DNA of 64,000 nucleotides from a virus (taxonomy: Duplodnaviria > Heunggongvirae > Uroviricota > Caudoviricetes). This document shows positions 1,608 through 45,700 of the stretch, one piece after another. Numbering within the stretch: position 1 is the stretch's first letter; each line of letters starts with the position of its first letter. The stretch lies in the IMG/VR virus record IMGVR_UViG_3300045988_158394, one strand, 5' to 3'. The position numbers were made by a program, and so were the translations under genes. The notes below the pieces were generated by a model that made no database searches, was not told the DNA's origin, and was given only the letters and a program-made list of their open reading frames with translations.

Positions 1608-3868
1608 AAGAGCTGTGCTATGGATCTGTTTGCAGTGGAATTGAAGCCGCGAGTATTGCCTGGGAACCGTTGGGTATGCGTCCGGCGTGGTTTGCTGAAA
1701 TCGAGCCTTTTCCATCTGCCGTTCTTGCGCACCGCTGGCCCCATGTCGCCAACCTTGGCGACATGACAAAACTTGCCAAAAAAGTCCTGGCTGGGGAAAT
1801 CGAATCCCCTGATGTGCTCGTCGGGGGAACACCTTGTCAGGCATTCAGTATCGCTGGATTACGTGGTGGGCTTGATGATGAGCGTGGCGCGCTAACTTTA
1901 AAGTATGTGGAGCTTGCAAATGCAATTGACGACAAACGGGCTGAGTCATTTCTCAAACCGACAGTTATCGTCTGGGAAAATGTCCCAGGAGTCCTGTCAT
2001 CGGCAGATAACGCCTTCGGATGTTTCCTTGCCGGATTGGCTGGAGAAGATGCGCCATTTGAACCAGGTGATCGACCTGAATCAGGAAAAAGTAACGCGTT
2101 CTGGCGGTGGGATGGCAAAACCGGTTGCCATGCTCCAAAGTGGCCGCAGTGTGGTTGTATTTATGGACCGCAGCGAAAGGTGGCCTGGAGAATCCTTGAT
2201 GCCCAATACTTCGGAGTGGCACAACGACGCCGACGCGTGTTTGTTGTCGCAAGTGCTCGAACAGACCTCGATCCCGCAACGGTACTTTTTGAGTTCGAAG
2301 GCGTGCGCCGGAATATTGCGCCGAGCCGAAAAAAGAAGGAAATCGCTTCCGCCATTATTGCAAATGGCGCTGCAATCAGTGGCGAAAGCCTAAATCCATG
2401 CCTACACGCTGACATGCCACCCGGTATGAAATCGACGAAAGCCGTAAACGCTTTCAGGATGGCAGCATTTGGGGAATATATTGACGATGAAACCGCATCG
2501 ACAGTAAAGGCAAGAGATTTTAAAGATGCCACTGACCTTGCCGTTTTTAGCAGCACAGGAGCAGGTTTTTGGTCAGAAGGGCATGGTACATTGCGGGCAC
2601 GTGAGCAAGAAAGCCATGAGCATCTTGTTACATTGGCTTTTCCTGAGCGTATGAGCGGTACACAACATGCTGCAACTAAGAATACTTCACCATCTCTAAT
2701 GGCTAAAAATCCAACAGCTGTTTGCTATGAAGTAAGAAACGCAGAAGTAGCTGTCCGCCGTCTTACCCCTGTCGAATGTGAAAGGCTGCAAGGTTTTCCT
2801 GATGGGCATACGTTGATCCCGACGGAAAAGCGTAAAAAAGTTAATTCAGATGAACTGGCATATCTTCGCAATCACTATCCAGATTTAAGCGAAGAAGAGG
2901 CCGCGATGCTTGCATCTGACGGACCGCGTTACAAAGCGATCGGCAATAGTATGGCAATACCAGTAATGCGCTGGATTGGCGATCGGATTACTAAGGCCGT
3001 ATGTCGGCAGAAAGAAGTAAGTGAAACAAAAGAGCGAAAAGTTAAACCAGCGGCAGAATTCGAACGGTCCATATTCAAATGGGCTGGTGGAAAATTTGGT
3101 GTTCTGGAACAAATCTTTCGTTATTTGCCAGAAGGGAAGCGCCTGATTGAACCTTTCGTTGGTGGCGGAGCTGTCTTCATGAATGCCGGATACCAGGAAA
3201 ATCTGCTAAATGATGTGAATGCTGACCTGATTAACTTTTACAAGACTCTGCAACGCGAGGCGCATTCACTTATCACTCTGGCACATCGTTTCTTCCAGGA
3301 CTACAACACACAGGAAGGATACCTGGCAGTACGGAATGCGTTTAACAAACAAGTCTATGATGATTTACATCGCGCAGCGGCGTTTTTGTTCCTGAACCGA
3401 CATTGTTTTAACGGATTGACGCGTTACAACCAGGCCGGTGAGTTCAATGTCGGTTATGGGAAGTATAAAACTCCGTATTTCCCATTACAGGAGATGGAAG
3501 CCTTCCTCGGTGCGGAAGGGTGTTCTGAGTTTGTATGTGGTGATTTTGCTGCGGTGATTGAAGCTGCCGGAGAAGGAGATGTCATTTTTTGCGATCCGCC
3601 ATATGAACCGCTTCCAAATACAGAGGGATTCACGAACTATTCCGGTCATGACTTTAAGTTTGAAGAGCAAAAACGCCTGGTGTCTCTGTTGACGGATGCT
3701 CATCGCCGAGGTGCAAAGGTTCTCATTACTAACAGTGGCGCGCCAAACATCAGAGAGCTTTATCATGACAATGGCTTCAGAGTGGAACCTCTTTTTGCCA
3801 GACGTTCTGTGTCTTGTAAGGGGGACACTCGAGGTGTAGCTCATGACGTTTTGAGTATATTGCTCTAA
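1604..3868 (+). CDS. dmt: Bifunctional DNA methyltransferase (N-terminal C5-cytosine MTase + C-terminal Dam-like N6-adenine MTase)
   Basis: 754 aa; C5-MTase PCQ motif ([12 protein letters not shown]) and ENV motif (VIVWENVPG); C-terminal FVGGGAVF and DPPY (CDPPYEP); size and position match P1 Dmt; GTG start overlapping hrdC stop. Confidence 0.85.
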
Positions 3869-3887
3869 TAAATTTATTAGTGTAATA
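3859..3887 (+). promoter_or_regulatory. C1 operator pair (overlapping, inverted) at dmt stop
   Basis: ATTGCTCTAATAAATTT followed by an overlapping AAATTTATTAGTGTAAT inverted copy (15/17 match); likely C1-controlled promoter of the downstream tRNA-tci-ban operon. Confidence 0.55.
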
Positions 3888-4052
3888 TCGCCTCAATGAA
3901 TCGTGATTTATAGATCGATTTAGCTGTTAGCCGCGACAGGCGCGGCGGCAAGTATGGCGGGGTAGTGACTCCTTCCCCCTCATGACGCCGAGTTGCCAGG
4001 TTGACCATACGCCTAAGTGGCAACACCGAAGTGCGTTACGAGCTTCCAGTTT

Positions 4053-4078
4053 GCCCATCTTCGGGTGGGCGTTTTTTT
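4053..4078 (+). terminator. Rho-independent terminator-like hairpin in operon leader
   Basis: gcccatc-ttcg-ggtgggc stem-loop followed by a run of 7 T. Confidence 0.5.
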
Positions 4079-4543
4079 CAGGGTTTTCGTCATGGTTAGC
4101 GACTTTGCGGCGTTTTAGAAACTGACCATTAAAGTAAATGCAAACGATGATCTGATGATGGTAGCGGCCTAAGAAGCCAGACGCCACGGGGTATGAGTCG
4201 TCCCCCGTCAAAAAATCGACCGCAGAGTGTCCCCGTCTGTGTATTAGGGAACGGGGAGGCACAACAGGTAAGGGCGCTGGTGTGATTAACCAGATGAACG
4301 AGAAGGGGCCATCTGTTGGTCAGCGTCCTTTCCTGTTGCGTCTTCTTTTCAGCGTAACAGCGGTGCTTAACAGCACTTTGGGTACAGTTCCACGAATTTA
4401 CGGGTATATCCCGTCATGCTGAAAGCGCTAATCACGCTGGAAGCCAGGGTTATGCATCCCCTGTTACCGAATTGCAGCCAGGGCGCGGTGCGCCGAAAAG
4501 CATACGGAGGTGGAAGCCCTCGCCGGAGACGTACCCGGCAAGT

Positions 4544-4619
4544 GATGGTGTAGCTCAGCGGTTAGAGCGGTTGACTGTTAATCAACGGGTCGATGGTTCA
4601 AATCCATCCACCATCGCCA
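4544..4619 (+). tRNA. trnA: tRNA-Asn (anticodon GTT)
   Basis: Canonical cloverleaf read by eye: acceptor gatggtg/caccatc, D-arm gctcagcggttagagc, anticodon loop CTGTTAA, T-loop TTCAAAT, 3' CCA encoded. Confidence 0.85.
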
Positions 4620-4621
4620 AT

Positions 4622-4697
4622 GCCGGTTTAGCTCAGTTGGTAGAGCGCCTGCCTTGTAAGCAGGATGTCAGCGGTTCGAGTCCGTTAATCGGCACCA
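4622..4697 (+). tRNA. trnT: tRNA-Thr (anticodon TGT)
   Basis: Acceptor gccggtt/aatcggc, D-arm gctcagttggtagagc, anticodon loop CTTGTAA, T-loop TTCGAGT, CCA encoded; 2 bp after tRNA-Asn. Confidence 0.85.
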
Positions 4698-5118
4698 GCA
4701 CAACAGGTAAGGGTATTTTGCGACGTCGGAGATCGCCGAGCTTGGCAGAGGGTTCGAATCCCTACGAAGTACCCTTACCGTTGTGATGAAGTGCAGCTCT
4801 TAGAAGCAACCAGAAGATAAGCATCTGGCTTCACAACATAAACCGCAGGAACGACCAATAAACGGTAGTCCGTATGGAGAACACCCCGTTGAGGAAGAGG
4901 CCTGGCCGGAACCGTAACCGGCACTACAACGTTGAGAACATTGGCGTAACGGGGTCATATCCCAATCTATGAATAAATGTTGCGTTGCCGCGTGACAACC
5001 AGTGTTCTCAACATTGTGGTGAATGCACAGGCTGATGTGCCGCAACTACAGTAGTGCGCGCTTTGCGGGGCTTGCTACAACCCTGTGTCGGAGTTCAGCA
5101 CCGACCACCACAATCACT

Positions 5119-5205
5119 GGAGAGTAGGGAGCATGGTGCTCAAGCGGTCTTGAAAACCGTCCCATAGCGCAAGCGATGATGGTTCGATTCCATTACTCTC
5201 CGCCA
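5119..5205 (+). tRNA. Candidate type-II tRNA, Ser(UGA)-like, with atypical short D-arm
   Basis: 7-bp acceptor ggagagt/actctcc + G + CCA; T-arm gatgg-ttcgatt-ccatt; anticodon arm gcggtCTTGAAAaccgt resembling E. coli tRNA-Ser(UGA); long variable arm; D-arm only about 4 bp with a 5-nt loop. Confidence 0.4.
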
Positions 5206-5468
5206 GCGCAACGTTAAGAGTATTTGGCTAATTAAGCGAATGCCGGAAGCAGAACCGGATCAACAAATGCGTACAGGCGTCATCGCCGCCCAGCCAGCCA
5301 AGTGCTCTTACCATTGCGGTGAATGCGGCTAAGCGCACGCGGGGAAATGGTTATATCAGTCCATTCATTTCTCCTTGTTTCCCCGTCCACGGTGGATAAC
5401 CAGCCAAAGGACACCGGGAGGCACCCGGCACCGCAACCTTATTTCCCAACCAGTAATGAGGTTAATAA

Positions 5469-5894
5469 ATGCTCGGCATTCTCAAAAAGAAATTCCGCAA
5501 AGCGGCTGGCGGAGTCAAGAAGATGGAAAACCGTGATGCGGTGGAAGCGACTGTCTGGGGCGCATATTCCATTGCATACTCTGACGGCACCTGCGATGCG
5601 AAAGAAATTGCAGTATTGGAAAAAACCATTGCAGCACTTCCTGCCTTTGCGCCGTTCTCCGGTGAAATTGCCCAGATGAGCGCCAATATTCGCGCTCAAT
5701 ATGAAGCCTCGCCGCGCCGAGCGAATGCCCAGGCTTTACGTGAACTGGCTGACGTGTCTGGAACTAATGATGCGGTAGATGTTCTGTGCCTATGCATTGA
5801 TATTGCTGACCAGGATGGCATTGGGGCAGAAGAGCAGGAGCAATTGAAGAAAATTGCCCAGGCTCTTCAATTGCCACTGGAACAGTATATCTGA
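5469..5894 (+). CDS. tciA: TerB-like (tellurite-resistance family) protein
   Basis: 141 aa; TerB-like repeats (DGTCDAKEIAVLEK, DQDGIGAEEQEQLKKIA); sits at the P1 tciA position after the tRNA pair. Confidence 0.65.
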   Translation: MLGILKKKFRKAAGGVKKMENRDAVEATVWGAYSIAYSDGTCDAKEIAVLEKTIAALPAFAPFSGEIAQMSANIRAQYEASPRRANAQALRELADVSGTNDAVDVLCLCIDIADQDGIGAEEQEQLKKIAQALQLPLEQYI

Positions 5895-6058
5895 TGGTTA
5901 TAAAAGCACGTCTAATTCTGGCTTTGGTTTTTCTCGTGCTATCTGTGCTGGTGGATTTCACCAGCACAATCCTGTCGGTTTTATCCGACGGGGCGTTGGT
6001 AGCAGTAGCTGTAACATTGGTATGGCCGATATTTAAACCAGCCTCGAAGGATCAGTGA
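5894..6058 (+). CDS. tciB: Small membrane protein (54 aa), translationally coupled to tciA
   Basis: ATG overlaps the tciA stop (ctgATGg); MVIKARLILALVFLVLSVLVDFTSTILSVLSDGALVAVAVTLVWPIFKPASKDQ; below the ORF-track size cutoff. Confidence 0.45.
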   Translation: MVIKARLILALVFLVLSVLVDFTSTILSVLSDGALVAVAVTLVWPIFKPASKDQ

Positions 6059-6165
6059 TGAGCTTCTGGGATTTTGCAGATAAGTATCCAATTGTTCTCA
6101 TTATCATTGTTGCCATAGTTGTAGGCGGTATTGTTAGCGCCATTGAAGCACTTAGGAAACAGTAA
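6058..6165 (+). CDS. tciC: Small membrane protein (35 aa), translationally coupled
   Basis: ATG overlaps the previous stop (gTGATGa); MSFWDFADKYPIVLIIIVAIVVGGIVSAIEALRKQ; stop abuts the following tRNA. Confidence 0.45.
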   Translation: MSFWDFADKYPIVLIIIVAIVVGGIVSAIEALRKQ

Positions 6166-6168
6166 TCC

Positions 6169-6244
6169 GGCCCTTTAGCTCAGTGGTTAGAGCTGGCGAC
6201 TCATAATCGCACGGTCACCGGTTCAAGTCCGGTAGGGGCCACCA
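6169..6244 (+). tRNA. trnI: tRNA-Ile2-like (anticodon CAT, lysidine type)
   Basis: Near-identical in my recollection to E. coli ileX (GGCCCCTTAGCTCAGTGGTTAGAGC...GACTCATAATCGC...GGTTCAAGTCC...GGGGCCACCA); anticodon loop CTCATAA. Confidence 0.85.
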
Positions 6245-6529
6245 TATTTGGTTGTAACACGGCGTCTGGCACATGCGTCGTTAGCGGTCTGGTGACGTTA
6301 AAGGGGTTACCTTTTCCCCTAGCTCAGGCAACAAACCAGGTAGCCGGAATGTGCAAGTCACCGTTGGAGGGATAGCGGATACAGGGACTCACCATCCTGG
6401 CGATTCGGTGTGACAGTCGGGAAGAGTCCGGCGCATTAATCCTGATTTTCTGGTGATGACTCATATCGTTAGGAGTGATTTGAGTATGCCGATTATATCT
6501 GACATTCAGCACGCCTGGGTGGAGTGCTA

Positions 6530-33949: not shown

Positions 33950-34260
33950 TACATTGAACCTGACCTCTTGCGCCTTGAGGCATTTTCGGTTTATGCTTAT
34001 CAGGCACCTCAGTAAAACGGGTGCCGGGATTGAGACCCCGGATAATGCAAAAGGCGACACAGACGCCAAAAGCGTCTTTTTTTGTGTCATGCCATCGCAC
34101 AGCCATACGTAGCGTTTAGCTCAGAGATCAATGGTAGTGCTGGCTGGGCTGCCGAAAGGCAGGCCGGTTCCCTTTTGCGCCGGTAGTCTCAACCCAGTCA
34201 GTGCTACCGCCATTGAGATTGAGACCTCACGCGGTAGCTCCTTAAATTAGCAAAAGGAGG
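33950..34260 (+). ncRNA. Candidate structured regulatory RNA / leader (c4-like) upstream of the icd-like and ant-like genes
   Basis: Several local hairpins (ggcacc...ggtgcc, ccggg...cccgg, ctgcc-GAAA-ggcag), a tRNA-like tagctcag...ggtag segment, direct repeats of attgagacc and gccattg, and an internal terminator. Confidence 0.25.
34062..34083 (+). terminator. Rho-independent terminator-like hairpin
   Basis: gacgcc-aaaa-ggcgtc followed by TTTTTTT. Confidence 0.5.
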
Positions 34261-42787: not shown

Positions 42788-45700
42788 TTATGCGTATTGT
42801 TGGATGACGGCCAGAACGTCCGCCACGTTGTGTTTTGTCTCGATAATCCACCAGTTGCCCGGGAAATCGCTGTTCTTCGCCTTCGCTGGCAGCCAGCGAG
42901 CGCCGAATTTCGCCTTGATTGCGTCTTTCGCACGGAAAAGAACCCCTTTCATGCCGGAGGCTTCCTGAAGCCCAAATACCTCGCCAGCGGCGAATTTTGG
43001 TGCGTACATCATCTTCAGGTCGGCGGTGGATACGCGATAATTCAGACCAAGAGACTGAGCTATGCTGGTGGCATCACCCTGTATTGATGATAACTCTTCT
43101 TGTTTCTCGTTTCTGGCAGCAATTTCTTCCTCCGTGATGTTGCCAAGGGCCAGGTTTATCCGATCAGCGTCTGCCTGTTTCTCTTCATCGGTGCGCCCGG
43201 CAAGTACCGTGTTAATTCTGTGCAATATCTCCACATGATTCTTGCGCATGCTGAGCAATTCCGGCGTAACCTCGTTAAGGTCCACCAGCCCAAGGATGGC
43301 AAGGTCGGTAAACATTGATACCAGGTTGTAGGTCATGCGATAGCTGAGTTGCCCATAGGCTGATGGCAACTGCACCGCATCCATTTTATAGGCATCCATA
43401 AATTTAGAGCCGTCGTTTACGACATCCGCAATTGCCGGTGTGATTTTTCCTGTGGTGGCGGCCTCCCTGATTGCTGTTACCCACGATTGAGTCAGCGCGG
43501 CGACTGCATGATTCAGATTGACTTTCCGTTCTGCTGCAATGCGCGCGCTTGCTGCGTCCATTGCCTGCTTGATCTCGTCTTTATTGCTGTAAATGCCAAT
43601 GGTGCCAAACTGTGCTGTGGTGATCTCATAATCTGACGCCCGGAACTCATTGGTACCGAAAATGGCATTGGTGACTTCAAGTTCAGAATCCCCGTTACGA
43701 GTAGCCCCCTGGCTTGTTTTCTCCGGCATTCTGGCGATCGCATCCGCTATTTTCTCCTGAATTGCTTCAGGGGATAGCGTATCTCCGTATGACGCGATTA
43801 CATCGCCATAATTGGAGCCAAACAGTTCAACCAGGAATGCTTCTGCCGAACGGATCTGGCGGTTATTCCCTTCCGACATCATACCAAGCACCCATTTTGC
43901 AATTGACGACTTCAGCGCGCCGTCACGGCGATCCGGGTAAACCGCATGCTTCAGTGGGTCCGTATAGGTACCAACAAAATCAATGCTATAGCCTGACTCT
44001 GTAGTCTGAACGCCGTATGAGTCAGTGATTTTGATCATGCCGCGCTGCTGGAAACGGTAGAAATCGTCACAGGAAACGATGTCGTTAATCCCGGCGATGG
44101 AGACGCCACCACTGATTTTCTGCATAACAGCATCTTCATCGGGAGTTACATCAACCTGTTTATCCAGCGTCTTCACATCCCAGTTACCAGATTTGGTGCC
44201 TTTGAAGGTGAAGATGATCTCCACGTCTGCGCGCTGGCTGTCGAAGTCCAGCGACTTAATGCGAACGATATCACCGGCACAATCGTAGTATTGGCCTACA
44301 CGCCATGAGCGATCGCCGATAACAAGGAACTCACTCGCATGGTTAACCAGGTCAGGATCAACATCCAGAATGCCTTTATTTAATGCATCCTCCACCAGCG
44401 GGCGCAGGCGTTTGATATCCGTCGCGGCCTTCTGAGTACGGTTCAATAATTTCTCATAGCGGGAGATGGCTTGAGAGATATTAGCCTTGCGCTGAATGGC
44501 GCTTTTCAACGACGCGCGATACTGTGCTAACAACATACGGTCTGTGTGATGGACACTCCCCCAGCGTGCCTTCCAGTCTGCGTTATCCGCTGCCTTGGCC
44601 ATTGCCGCCTGTTTGAATTTAGCTACCTCGGCGGTGGTCTTTTCAAGTTCCGCTTTGCTTCGCTCTAATTCAGCGGTAAGCACCTCCACATCCTCACCAG
44701 CTGCGTGCTGCGCCTTGATGTAGTTCTGAAGGTCGATAGTAGCCTGTTCTTTCTGGCGAGCGCGTTGCGCGGCTTTCGCCTTATCCATTTGAACCTGCAT
44801 CATTGCCAGACGTTCGCCATCATCCTTAGCGGTATACATCTGCATTTCGATCATATCGTTGGCGTCGGCGTTCTCCATTTCTGACTTATCTGAACGGAGG
44901 ATATCGGAGATCCAGCCTGCTTTACGCTTCAGCGTCTTCAGTCGGTATTCATCGAAAGAACCCTTGCCGCAGTAGTAGTGAACGCGAACGCTTGCACGGT
45001 TGGAGCCAACTCGGGCACCGCGACCGTTTCGTTGCGCAATACTGGCTGGAGTCCATGGCAACGTCAGATGATGGATGTCAGTCGTTCCTCGATGCAGGTT
45101 GATACCCACCTCTGCCTTTTTGTTGCAGATGATGATCGGAGTCCGGCCCTCCTGGAAGTCGGCTGCAATCTTTTCCAGACCGCCCAACGACATTTCATTT
45201 TGCTGCGCGATATAGGCGTCATACAGAGCCATTTGCTCGTTGTATTTCGCTATCTGTGCATCTGTTGGTTCATCCGGTAACTCTTTCGGCGGTTTAACCG
45301 CTTTCAGTTTCTTACCGGTTTTACCTGCCTCGGCAACCGTCTGAGCATTCAGTATCCCCACCTTTGAAGGTTCAAGGTTAAGAGCATTGCAGATAATGCG
45401 CTTGAGCTTCTGGTGCTGCGTTTTTTCATCGGTGAAGATGATTTGCTTACCTTCCGGGAAAAACTCCTTCAGCGTGGCAATCAGCTTCGCGTATTTGGGC
45501 GTAACGGGGTGAGTTACGGTCTGTTCGTCAATGCCAAACCTGGCCAGGCGCTTATTCACTTCCTGCTCGAACGCTTCCGGAACCTGCAACTGAATAAACT
45601 CGCCCTTATCTATCAGGGAGTATTGCGATTGCTGCGTGATTAAATCATCACTGTCGTCGTCTTCGCTGGTGGCTTGTTTAGGCAAACTGTCCGCCAGCTG

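Follow-up and report, generated by a model that had tools for sequence, protein, structure and literature searches.

The window analyzed in the current work is a 64,000-nucleotide (nt) stretch of viral DNA (Caudoviricetes; IMG/VR record IMGVR_UViG_3300045988_158394), which is a P1-like phage-plasmid. Its tRNA cluster, as the first-pass annotation of the sequence had listed it, is of the P1 type and contains three canonical tRNAs plus two non-canonical tRNA-like RNAs, here named element 1 (positions 4699-4785) and element 2 (positions 5119-5205). The account that we favor, and hold with moderate confidence, is a joint one: element 2 would be a working serine tRNA with an 8-base pair (bp) acceptor stem and a 4-bp T-stem (the 8/4 fold), and element 1 would be a modular hairpin of an operon leader, likely cut by RNase III.

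The serine tRNA at positions 5119-5205

ARAGORN identifies positions 5119-5205 as tRNA-Ser(tga). The general Rfam tRNA model (RF00005) reported no match for this interval at either the gathering or the relaxed threshold, and the best relaxed-threshold match was that of the tRNA-Sec model RF01852 (42.9 bits, E = 5e-7; gathering score 47). A class of tRNAs that surfaced as tRNA-Sec false positives has been described by Mukai et al. (2017; PMC5389517), which combines an 8/4 branch with a long variable arm, with G73 and with a D stem-loop of the Sec-like kind; it includes (8/4) tRNA-Ser in bacteriophages, the translation machinery of E. coli makes use of its members, and a longer (6-bp) anticodon stem is a general tendency of the class and not a strict criterion.

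The placement of element 2 was assessed on an alignment of 31 distinct homologs from many phage types, obtained by a scan of viral contigs and underlying all counts given below. The 8/4 cloverleaf is 97.6% paired across this alignment, with two-sided changes at 14 pairs; none of 500 shuffles was as good, and pairing amounted to 38-53% when the partner strand was slid. Pair 8-80 is standard in all homologs (AU 23, UG 7, GC 1), while the alternative pair of a 7/5 fold (64-80) is unpaired in seven, and the 8/4 fold is therefore favored over the canonical 7/5 arrangement. The D stem of 5 bp is 98.7% paired and closes a loop of 3-4 nt, its 3' strand having been preset by the search pattern. Column 10 (window position 5128), which immediately precedes the D stem, co-varies perfectly with column 44 (window position 5161), located just 3' of the anticodon stem (GC 15, CG 14, UA 1, GU 1). 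Since position 25 is an A, the usual 10-25 pair is impossible, and 10-44 has the appearance of a tertiary or junction pair specific to this family. By inspection, the variable arm forms a stem-loop of 12-21 nt in every homolog, and its stems vary yet pair (ATTGC/GCGAT, TTGAG/CTCGA, ACC/GGT, ATCC/GGAT). For the class, SerRS identity is given by a long variable arm and a G73 (or U73) discriminator; G73 occurs in 30 homologs, and the anticodon stem comprises 5 bp, a further position of which would be A.C, A.G or A.A. The earlier description of this element as tRNA-Ser(UGA)-like with an encoded CCA is thus upheld by the ARAGORN call and by covariation. Its "minimal D-arm" is indeed small, and the flaw that this wording implied falls away, as a Sec-like D stem-loop is typical of the 8/4 class.

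The tRNA-Ser is borne by a cassette of approximately 190 nt that is common to the window and to D6-type, SSU5/Cyrano-type and rV5-type phages, with close tRNA-Ser copies being found in rV5-like and SSU5/Cyrano-like phages. When aligned with these relatives, P1 and Ro157c2 were seen to carry unrelated sequence in its place, so that the comparison with P1 recommended by the first-pass annotation proved informative. Among 5,426 complete E. coli genomes, 330 carry the RefSeq label tRNA-Ser and the label tRNA-OTHER was used once. The allele of D6 differs from that of the window at two positions and is annotated (NC_050154) as "tRNA-Ser ... AA not called by tRNAscan-SE" with a UGA anticodon; D6-like plasmids have been reported to carry four tRNAs, Ser among them (PMC6799933). 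Being annotated in RefSeq and in D6, element 2 is already known as a gene, and the only addition made here is its placement in the 8/4 class. As a separate observation, in the rV5-like phage phita32 (L004, 1690-1788) ARAGORN reports a 99-nt "tRNA-???" with a four-base anticodon (atcc) directly after the hairpin that follows the tRNA-Ser.

From its sequence, element 2 would be expected to be charged by the host SerRS. In 39 long open reading frames (ORFs) of the window the codons UCA, ACA and AUA, matching the UGA, UGU and CAU (lysidine) anticodons of the phage tRNAs, account for 18.7%, 23.2% and 18.1% of their codon families, shares that lie well above host usage, and it is plausible that the tRNA-Ser, together with the UGU and CAU tRNAs, supplements the decoding of heavily used A-ending codons.

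Several points weigh against a functional tRNA-Ser. The search pattern preset both the D-stem 3' strand and the anticodon loop of the alignment, and in the window allele position 5167 carries an A where most P1-like alleles have a T, by which a U.G pair of the variable arm becomes an A.G mismatch. This mismatch, the failure of the general tRNA model, the tRNA-Sec score short of its threshold, the lack of an amino-acid call by tRNAscan-SE noted by the D6 annotators and the single tRNA-OTHER label could all be expected of a decayed, non-functional tRNA-like relic, a possibility touched on by the first-pass annotation, which had called decayed or repurposed members common in phage tRNA clusters. 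Such a relic is nevertheless very unlikely, given the strong compensatory conservation over the 31 homologs, the retention of identity-relevant features (G73, a long variable arm and CCA) and the demonstration that the 8/4 fold class works in E. coli translation (PMC5389517; PMC7609411). The A5167 allele is shared by 13 E. coli records at least 99% identical to that of the window. Read from its sequence and that of its homologs, element 2 is a genuine, non-decayed tRNA-Ser(UGA) of the described (8/4) tRNA-Ser/allo-tRNA class.

The hairpin at positions 4699-4785 and its relatives

Judged by conservation and covariation, element 1 is not a tRNA; it is a conserved RNA module, so far uncurated, whose tip is tRNA-like. 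Its sequences GTAAGGGTA (4707-4715) and TACCCTTAC (4770-4778), which constitute inverted repeat I15, are exact complements, as had been noted for a presumed 9-bp acceptor-like helix; the length was underestimated, the helix actually comprising 21 pairs. The fold (-41.6 kcal/mol, z = -5.7) was equaled by none of 200 shuffles. ARAGORN made no tRNA or tmRNA call on the element, and no Rfam tRNA-clan model matched it at E values up to 10. The element is present in 488 plasmids and in 464 of the 5,426 E. coli genomes, where, as in Rfam, it is without annotation; a diverged plasmid copy in pSa1423 (89.9%) was left out on account of many apparent indels, tRNA-Asn being broken in it too. Literature searches turned up nothing on the hairpin, be it with the string CAACAGGTAAG or with plp/upl/ban, the P1 ban operon and the tRNA-Ser of phage-plasmids as topics.

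The enclosing stem has diverged and yet remains paired, as is apparent from TATTTTG/CGAAGTA versus CATTGGG/CCCAGTG, CATTGCG/CGCAGTG and CATTGAG/CTCAGTG of lambdoid contigs. Two-sided changes are found at four stem pairs, and 97.3% of the cells are paired as compared to 32-51% when the partner is slid.

Some other candidate identities were considered and dropped. When positions 4450-5500 were scanned against Rfam at a low threshold, the matches for element 1 were mascRNA (14.9 bits, E = 7) and ALIL (12.4 bits), both regarded as noise; a tmRNA is unsupported by ARAGORN, and as to a Y RNA, YrlA scored 25.6 bits, its threshold being 69, and matched where the true tRNAs are; and for an integron attC-like site, the base, when examined by eye, misfits GTTRRRY and an integrase is not nearby.

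Element 1 is, on the sequence comparisons presented here, one of four leader copies (Ha to Hd, element 1 being Hb; Table 1) of a modular hairpin family which also occurs in lambdoid late leaders, and whose copies differ in their apical cargo; the stem base of the family reads CAAC(A)GGUAAGRG.../...CYCUUWCCGUUG. The four share the base CAAC(A)GKTRAG... / ...CTYWMC(N)GTTG, each is followed by TG(G)TGAAT..., and the covariance model R1 matches Ha at 24.2 bits. In all four the z-score is more negative on the + strand than on the - strand; the free energy is lower on the + strand in three and equal in Hd. At least seven unrelated interiors occupy one base stem after tRNA-Thr in P1-like contigs, and compensatory variants of that base stem exist (GGAAAG/CTTTTC, GATCA/TGATC). 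Deletion and hybrid forms have their junctions at shared sequences, two contigs (L130 and L194) being Hc/Hd' hybrids.

Among 126 instances of the family in the fetched loci, 66 are located directly after tRNA-Thr and 59 beside no tRNA; many of the copies not adjacent to a tRNA directly follow the T-run of a terminator, and no tRNA was called in the fetched stretch of those contigs. In one of the contigs (L230) the order is NinG, an ORF at the position of Q, a terminator with a hairpin carrying the window-type core, and a lysozyme-like ORF. Phage lambda itself has a copy, CACAACAGGTAAGAGCATTG...CAGTGCTCTTTCCGTTGTG, at 44,789-44,861, i.e. 9 nt past the T-run of tR', which folds locally at -29 kcal/mol (z = -3.5) and is more stable on the + strand; Rfam reports nothing at this hairpin. 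The sequence 3' of the lambda hairpin is that which forms the interior of Hd in the window, the Hd interior thus being homologous to the post-hairpin domain of lambda as well as to the stretch after the tRNA-Ser of rV5-like phages. A point against the hairpin in lambda is that the global minimum free energy (MFE) structure of its leader drops it, other folds winning. When species-representative genomes were scanned with the stem base, one real match was obtained, in an Escherichia P1-like contig, the other three lying within the number estimated for chance.

The 44-nt core at the tip of element 1 is a conserved four-way junction in which a perfect T-arm is accompanied by a D-like arm and a 3-bp stub, the latter two filling the interior; the earlier remark that a perfect T-arm and a D-like arm leave no room for an anticodon arm therefore stands. 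A single nucleotide, A4764, separates the T-arm from the 3' strand of the stem, which is tRNA topology. In a targeted scan the core, CGAYGTCGGAGATCGCC-(4-5 nt)-TGG-YAG-AGGGTTCGAATCCCT-A, was nearly invariant in P1-like elements and lambdoid contigs, and a search with model R1 did not find a family-1 member with a diverged core, that of contig L115 being identical. The TCGG/CCGA hairpin of the window MFE structure is without conservation, and the arrangement of 3-bp D-like arm, 3-bp stub with tetraloop and T-arm is consistent with the alignment. Two unrelated cargos of the family (those of the L146 group and of L259) carry a canonical T-arm which adjoins the 3' strand of the stem at a distance of 0-1 nt. 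Beneath the constant T-loop their T-stems (GCGG/CCGC and CAAGG/CCTTG) differ from that of the window (AGGG/CCCT), and all three arms or helices show two-sided changes across the three cargo families in a model-fitted alignment.

A decayed tRNA gene which has lost its anticodon arm and its function would leave a perfect T-arm and a D-like arm with a GG-containing loop beside two adjoining tRNAs, in a cluster whose tRNA cassettes come and go; moreover, the model built from element 1 weakly matches the genuine tRNA-Asn (17.3 bits, E about 0.4). Such an origin is unlikely because the core is near-invariant while the stem co-varies, and because the same T-arm placement recurs in two unrelated cargos. 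Lambdoid contigs whose fetched stretch yielded no tRNA call have a near-identical core, their stem having diverged with compensation; tRNA models give no match even at E = 10; and the "acceptor" extends over approximately 21 bp and is AU/GU-rich near the junction. Of the two options initially offered for element 1, a tRNA remnant or a mimic, the remnant is thus set aside and the mimic is retained as a possibility.

It is possible that the core is a selected tRNA-elbow mimic. A wider proposal can be put forward tentatively, as a conjecture with a small but real chance of being correct: the T-arm tips of the window core, the L146 group and L259 would be elbow mimics and would represent a new class of phage tRNA-like structures, which RNase III-type hairpins in the leaders of temperate coliphages (P1 ban, lambdoid late) would bear as an exchangeable cargo, and which would either recruit a host factor that binds the T-arm or elbow (such a factor being TruB, TrmA, RNase P or an enzyme for CCA addition or repair) or act as a decoy for a tRNA-targeting defense nuclease. 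Counting against the mimic, RNAalifold prefers another interior pairing, in which UCGGA of the D-like loop pairs with UUCGA of the T-loop, and within the family the invariant core is compatible with the cloverleaf-like and with the D-loop/T-loop fold alike; the cross-family alignment consists of three lineages, is model-fitted and leans to the model, and is suggestive only.

The interval might also be ordinary coding sequence, as two minus-strand genes, plp ("putative lipoprotein") and upl, are placed here by the annotation of P1, their equivalents spanning window positions 4668-5240. Formally, the plp annotation of P1 is what the first-pass annotation had named as a refutation, coding sequence in relatives; the coding alternative is nonetheless extremely unlikely: the plp ORF is stop-truncated, lacks family support and, in P1, crosses both element 1 and the 3' end of tRNA-Thr in antisense direction. 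A TAA at 4800-4802 cuts its frame in the window and in Ro157c2 (81 versus 125 amino acids), neither Plp nor Upl has Pfam matches, unrelated cargo replaces the 3' part of plp in relatives, upl lies within the segment exchanged for the tRNA-Ser cassette, and both genes are non-essential. The plp and upl annotations of P1 are probably spurious.

The ban-operon leader and its predicted processing

The C4 antisense RNA, isrK and the P1 tRNA trio (Asn, Thr, CAU) are all found in the window by Rfam and ARAGORN. Positions 4200-5500 are 98.7% identical to P1 across 85% of their length, and 99.9% identical to one E. coli plasmid. According to the P1 annotation, the counterpart of this region is located 3' of the C1-controlled promoters P1ban and P2ban and 5' of tciABC, trnI and ban. 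This promoter/operator layout, together with the inverted repeat at 3857-3888 of the window (Table 1), identifies the + strand from 3.9 to 6.3 kb as the ban-operon leader, which is predicted to be long and for the most part untranslated, in an operon repressed by C1, with its transcript starting at 3857-3888 and running through the entire region. The earliest convincing ORF of the leader region is tciA, at 5469.

At 4049-4080, where the region annotated as DicF-like in P1 ends, the + strand has a terminator-like hairpin with a T-run; transcription of the tRNA region from Pban would need read-through or an unrecognized promoter. A simple promoter scan found no sigma-70-like site within 3700-6400, and no internal promoter for the tRNAs is therefore proposed.

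Table 1. Positions of the elements, their parts and neighboring features in the window
Feature	Positions	Strand	Description
Element 2, acceptor	5119-5126 with 5194-5201	+	8/4 fold
Element 2, D stem-loop	5129-5141	+	stem of 5 bp with 3-nt loop, or 4 bp with 5-nt loop
Element 2, anticodon arm	5144-5160	+	anticodon 5151-5153
Element 2, variable arm	5164-5177	+	long
Element 2, T-arm	5179-5193	+	
Element 2, G73 and encoded CCA	5202; 5203-5205	+	
Element 1 (hairpin Hb)	4699-4785	+	21 pairs (4699-4704/4780-4785, A4705 bulged, 4706-4720/4765-4779), enclosing the 44-nt core; 27 pairs when the helix is taken as 4692-4794
Core of element 1	4721-4764	+	44 nt: D-like arm, 3-bp stub, T-arm
D-like arm CGA/TCG	4721-4723/4733-4735	+	9-nt loop containing GG
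Stub CCG/TGG	4736-4738/4743-4745	+	3 bp, 4-nt loop; at anticodon-arm position
T-arm AGGG-TTCGAAT-CCCT	4749-4763	+	perfect
Hairpin Ha	4257-4345	+	16 pairs; -42.9 kcal/mol, z = -5.2 (- strand -33.2, z = -4.0); shares GCACAACAGGTAAGGG with element 1
Hairpin Hc	4922-5022	+	22 pairs; -44.8 kcal/mol, z = -7.0 (- strand -37.8, z = -5.6); inverted repeat I1
Hairpin Hd	5207-5318	+	21 pairs; z = -3.9; begins 2 nt after the tRNA-Ser CCA
Closed domain TGTGGTG...CACCACA	5014-5112	+	local fold; architecture as in the STnc100-like domain; ends 6 nt before tRNA-Ser
STnc100/PasD-like closed domain	5315-5435	+	Rfam STnc100 (RF02076), 37.8 bits, E = 1.9e-6
C1-operator-like inverted repeat I7, ATATTGCTCTAATAAA/TTTATTAGTGTAATAT	3857-3888	+	equivalent of P1 Oban/Op72 with P1ban/P2ban; P1 annotation at the homologous position
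tRNA-Asn(GUU)	4544-4619	+	canonical; ARAGORN; Rfam tRNA, 74.5 bits
tRNA-Thr(UGU)	4622-4697	+	canonical; ARAGORN; Rfam tRNA, 72.9 bits
tRNA with CAU anticodon	6169-6244	+	canonical; ARAGORN; Rfam, 64.7 bits; tRNA-Ile2 in the P1 annotation

The hairpins of the leader alternate with STnc100/PasD-like domains and with tRNAs. The first pair of element 1 lies 1 nt from the CCA end of tRNA-Thr. The STnc100 match at 37.8 bits is below the gathering score of 47 and covers model positions 31-147 of 206; it starts at the 3' end of Hd, its domain is located just 5' of tciA, and L140 shows a like relation. In the second closed domain, a small hairpin GCACAGGCTGATGTGC (5024-5039, after Hc) reads GCGCAGGCTGATGCGC in many relatives and in lambdoid contigs, a compensatory change from A-U to G-C within a conserved motif of the domain. 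The closed domains may be processed small RNAs (sRNAs) or a structured 5' untranslated region. STnc100/PasD prophage sRNAs located between Q and the lysis genes are described in a 2026 preprint.

The hairpins are most likely RNase III processing sites, a prediction which rests on duplex length, on position and on the title of one paper. When a polycistronic phage RNA contains a duplex of roughly two helical turns, that duplex is a classic substrate of RNase III. The stems of the leader hairpins comprise 16, 27, 22 and 21 pairs, their z-scores range from -3.9 to -7.0 and an annotated promoter drives the + strand, in agreement with what an RNase III hairpin requires, a nearly uninterrupted RNA duplex of roughly 20 bp or longer on the strand that is transcribed. 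Furthermore, a 20-22-bp hairpin stands within 1-2 nt of the tRNA-Ser CCA in P1-like and Cyrano-like elements, and that of Cyrano is a perfect 20-bp hairpin (z = -9.0) of different sequence, at most 2 nt after the tRNA-Ser. We infer RNase III cutting from these duplexes of about two turns on phage polycistronic RNA and from the position of the Cyrano hairpin. The host RNase III would cut the hairpin duplexes, a cut which would separate tRNA-Thr and the downstream STnc100-like domain from the polycistronic leader; the tRNAs would then be released after exonucleolytic trimming, and the dense structure might shield the 1.6 kb of untranslated leader RNA. For the T-arm cargo, the leading guess is an elbow mimic that would stabilize the RNA or recruit a T-arm-binding enzyme.

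As to the paper mentioned, by Daniels et al. (1988; cited in PMC7547250), its title refers to in vivo RNase III processing sites of the lambda Q-dependent late transcript, and the mapped sites may lie elsewhere, which weakens the prediction. A further consideration on that side is that P1 plaque formation does not need the region.

The first-pass annotation had suggested that such elements can be RNase P processing signals. The precursor of the P1 C4 antisense RNA is processed by RNase P, the minimal substrate of which is a T-arm stacked on a helix, and C4 is encoded by P1 and present in the window; an analogous role of element 1 would accordingly be conceivable. It is nonetheless quite improbable, and the suggestion is not retained: there is no conserved RCCA, the equivalent bases being paired and reading ACCC in the window versus GCTC in lambdoid copies, and the helix does not end as an acceptor stem would, running on for 15-21 bp as a duplex of approximately 20 bp and thus leaving no single-stranded 5' leader at the expected cut. 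In addition, most members of the hairpin family are without any T-arm. RNase III is therefore the better candidate for element 1.

Doubtful, although deserving more weight than the RNase P signal, is a role of the hairpins as DNA, either as recombination or cassette-boundary sites or as single-strand DNA hairpins, with the RNA structure being incidental. What speaks for such a role, and to that extent against cleavage of an RNA, is that cassette junctions fall at shared bases or loops (L132; L130 and L194) and that the bases are near-palindromic, folding on both strands. An RNA role is favored because of the + strand asymmetry of the window hairpins and of the lambda copy, the use of G.U pairs in the stems and the fixed orientation relative to transcription in P1-like, lambdoid and Cyrano contexts. 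Moreover, the STnc100-like RNA domain begins exactly at the 3' end of a hairpin, no recombinase association was seen, and homologous recombination between repeats gives like junctions as a by-product.

Concerning cassette exchange, an exact 16-nt direct repeat (D10, GCACAACAGGTAAGGG) at 4259-4274 and 4698-4713, with a spacing of 439 nt, flanks the tRNA-Asn/Thr block. Contig L132 is without the entire block and has its junction at this repeat, so that the tRNA-Asn/Thr pair acts like a cassette that is lost when hairpin bases recombine with each other. The tRNA cassettes differ among P1-like elements: Ro157c2 (L003, 1625-1711) has an additional tRNA-Tyr between Asn and Thr, and in a P1-like viral contig (L051) an apparent tRNA with a CTTCTAA loop (Arg UCU), recognized by eye, replaces tRNA-Asn. 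Elsewhere in the window, an isrK-like match (58.2 bits) adjoins the C4 antisense RNA (75 bits) at 34004-34214, within the immI region, an arrangement that P1-type control of immunity would lead one to expect.

Significance and relation to known systems

The 8/4 serine tRNA fold, known mainly from metagenomes, is, as element 2 shows, common in clinically widespread phage-plasmids of E. coli and Salmonella and in rV5-like and SSU5-like coliphages; element 2 gives the class a genetically tractable host, and membership in it explains the hesitation of tRNA callers over this gene. Element 1 adds an uncurated, covariation-supported RNA module, the family of which reaches the lambda late leader, a region to which, apart from 6S/tR', no function has been assigned. 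Cleavage of the hairpins by RNase III, if it occurs, would explain both the release of tRNAs and STnc100/PasD-type sRNAs from long untranslated phage leaders and the shuffling of cassettes at the hairpins.

When compared with the (8/4) tRNA-Ser class, element 2 agrees in its 12-bp branch split as 8 + 4, its long variable arm and G73, its Sec-like D stem with a tiny loop, its match to the tRNA-Sec model, its serine anticodon and its location in a phage. It differs in that the published phage examples are derived from marine and alpha-proteobacterial phage metagenomes, whereas the present ones belong to an enterobacterial phage-plasmid and to SSU5-like and rV5-like coliphages; in that its anticodon stem of 5 bp is not extended; and in that a co-varying pair, formed by position 10 with the base that follows the anticodon stem on its 3' side, takes the place of the first D-stem pair. 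The tRNA-Ser of D6 (NC_050154; PMC6799933) is the identical gene at the identical position, treated there as an ordinary or doubtfully called tRNA without discussion of the 8/4 fold.

Known RNase III hairpins in phage RNAs include the early and late sites of T7, the N-leader and sib of lambda, and those involved in processing of the T4 tRNA cluster. The leader family resembles these in being duplexes of about two turns that show small internal defects and separate the functional RNA units of a long transcript, and is distinguished, as a set of predicted sites, by a conserved base and an exchangeable apical cargo that is in some cases tRNA-like. With respect to STnc100 (RF02076)/PasD, the domains at 5315-5435 and 5014-5112 share the architecture and reside in a similar leader, the known sRNAs being found between Q and the lysis genes of lambdoid prophages; in contrast, the score of 37.8 bits compares with a gathering score of 47, and element 1 is outside that model.

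Finally, tRNA-like processing or recognition modules are exemplified by the RNase P-processed P1 C4 precursor, the tRNA-like domain of tmRNA, the bacterial Y RNA-like YrlA, MALAT1 mascRNA and the gammaherpesvirus TMERs. Element 1 has in common with them that an arm with a canonical T-loop stacks on a helix, that the D element is reduced and that a decoding anticodon arm is lacking, and it is set apart from them by the absence of a CCA end, by an "acceptor" duplex of approximately 21 bp and by the absence of an Rfam model match.

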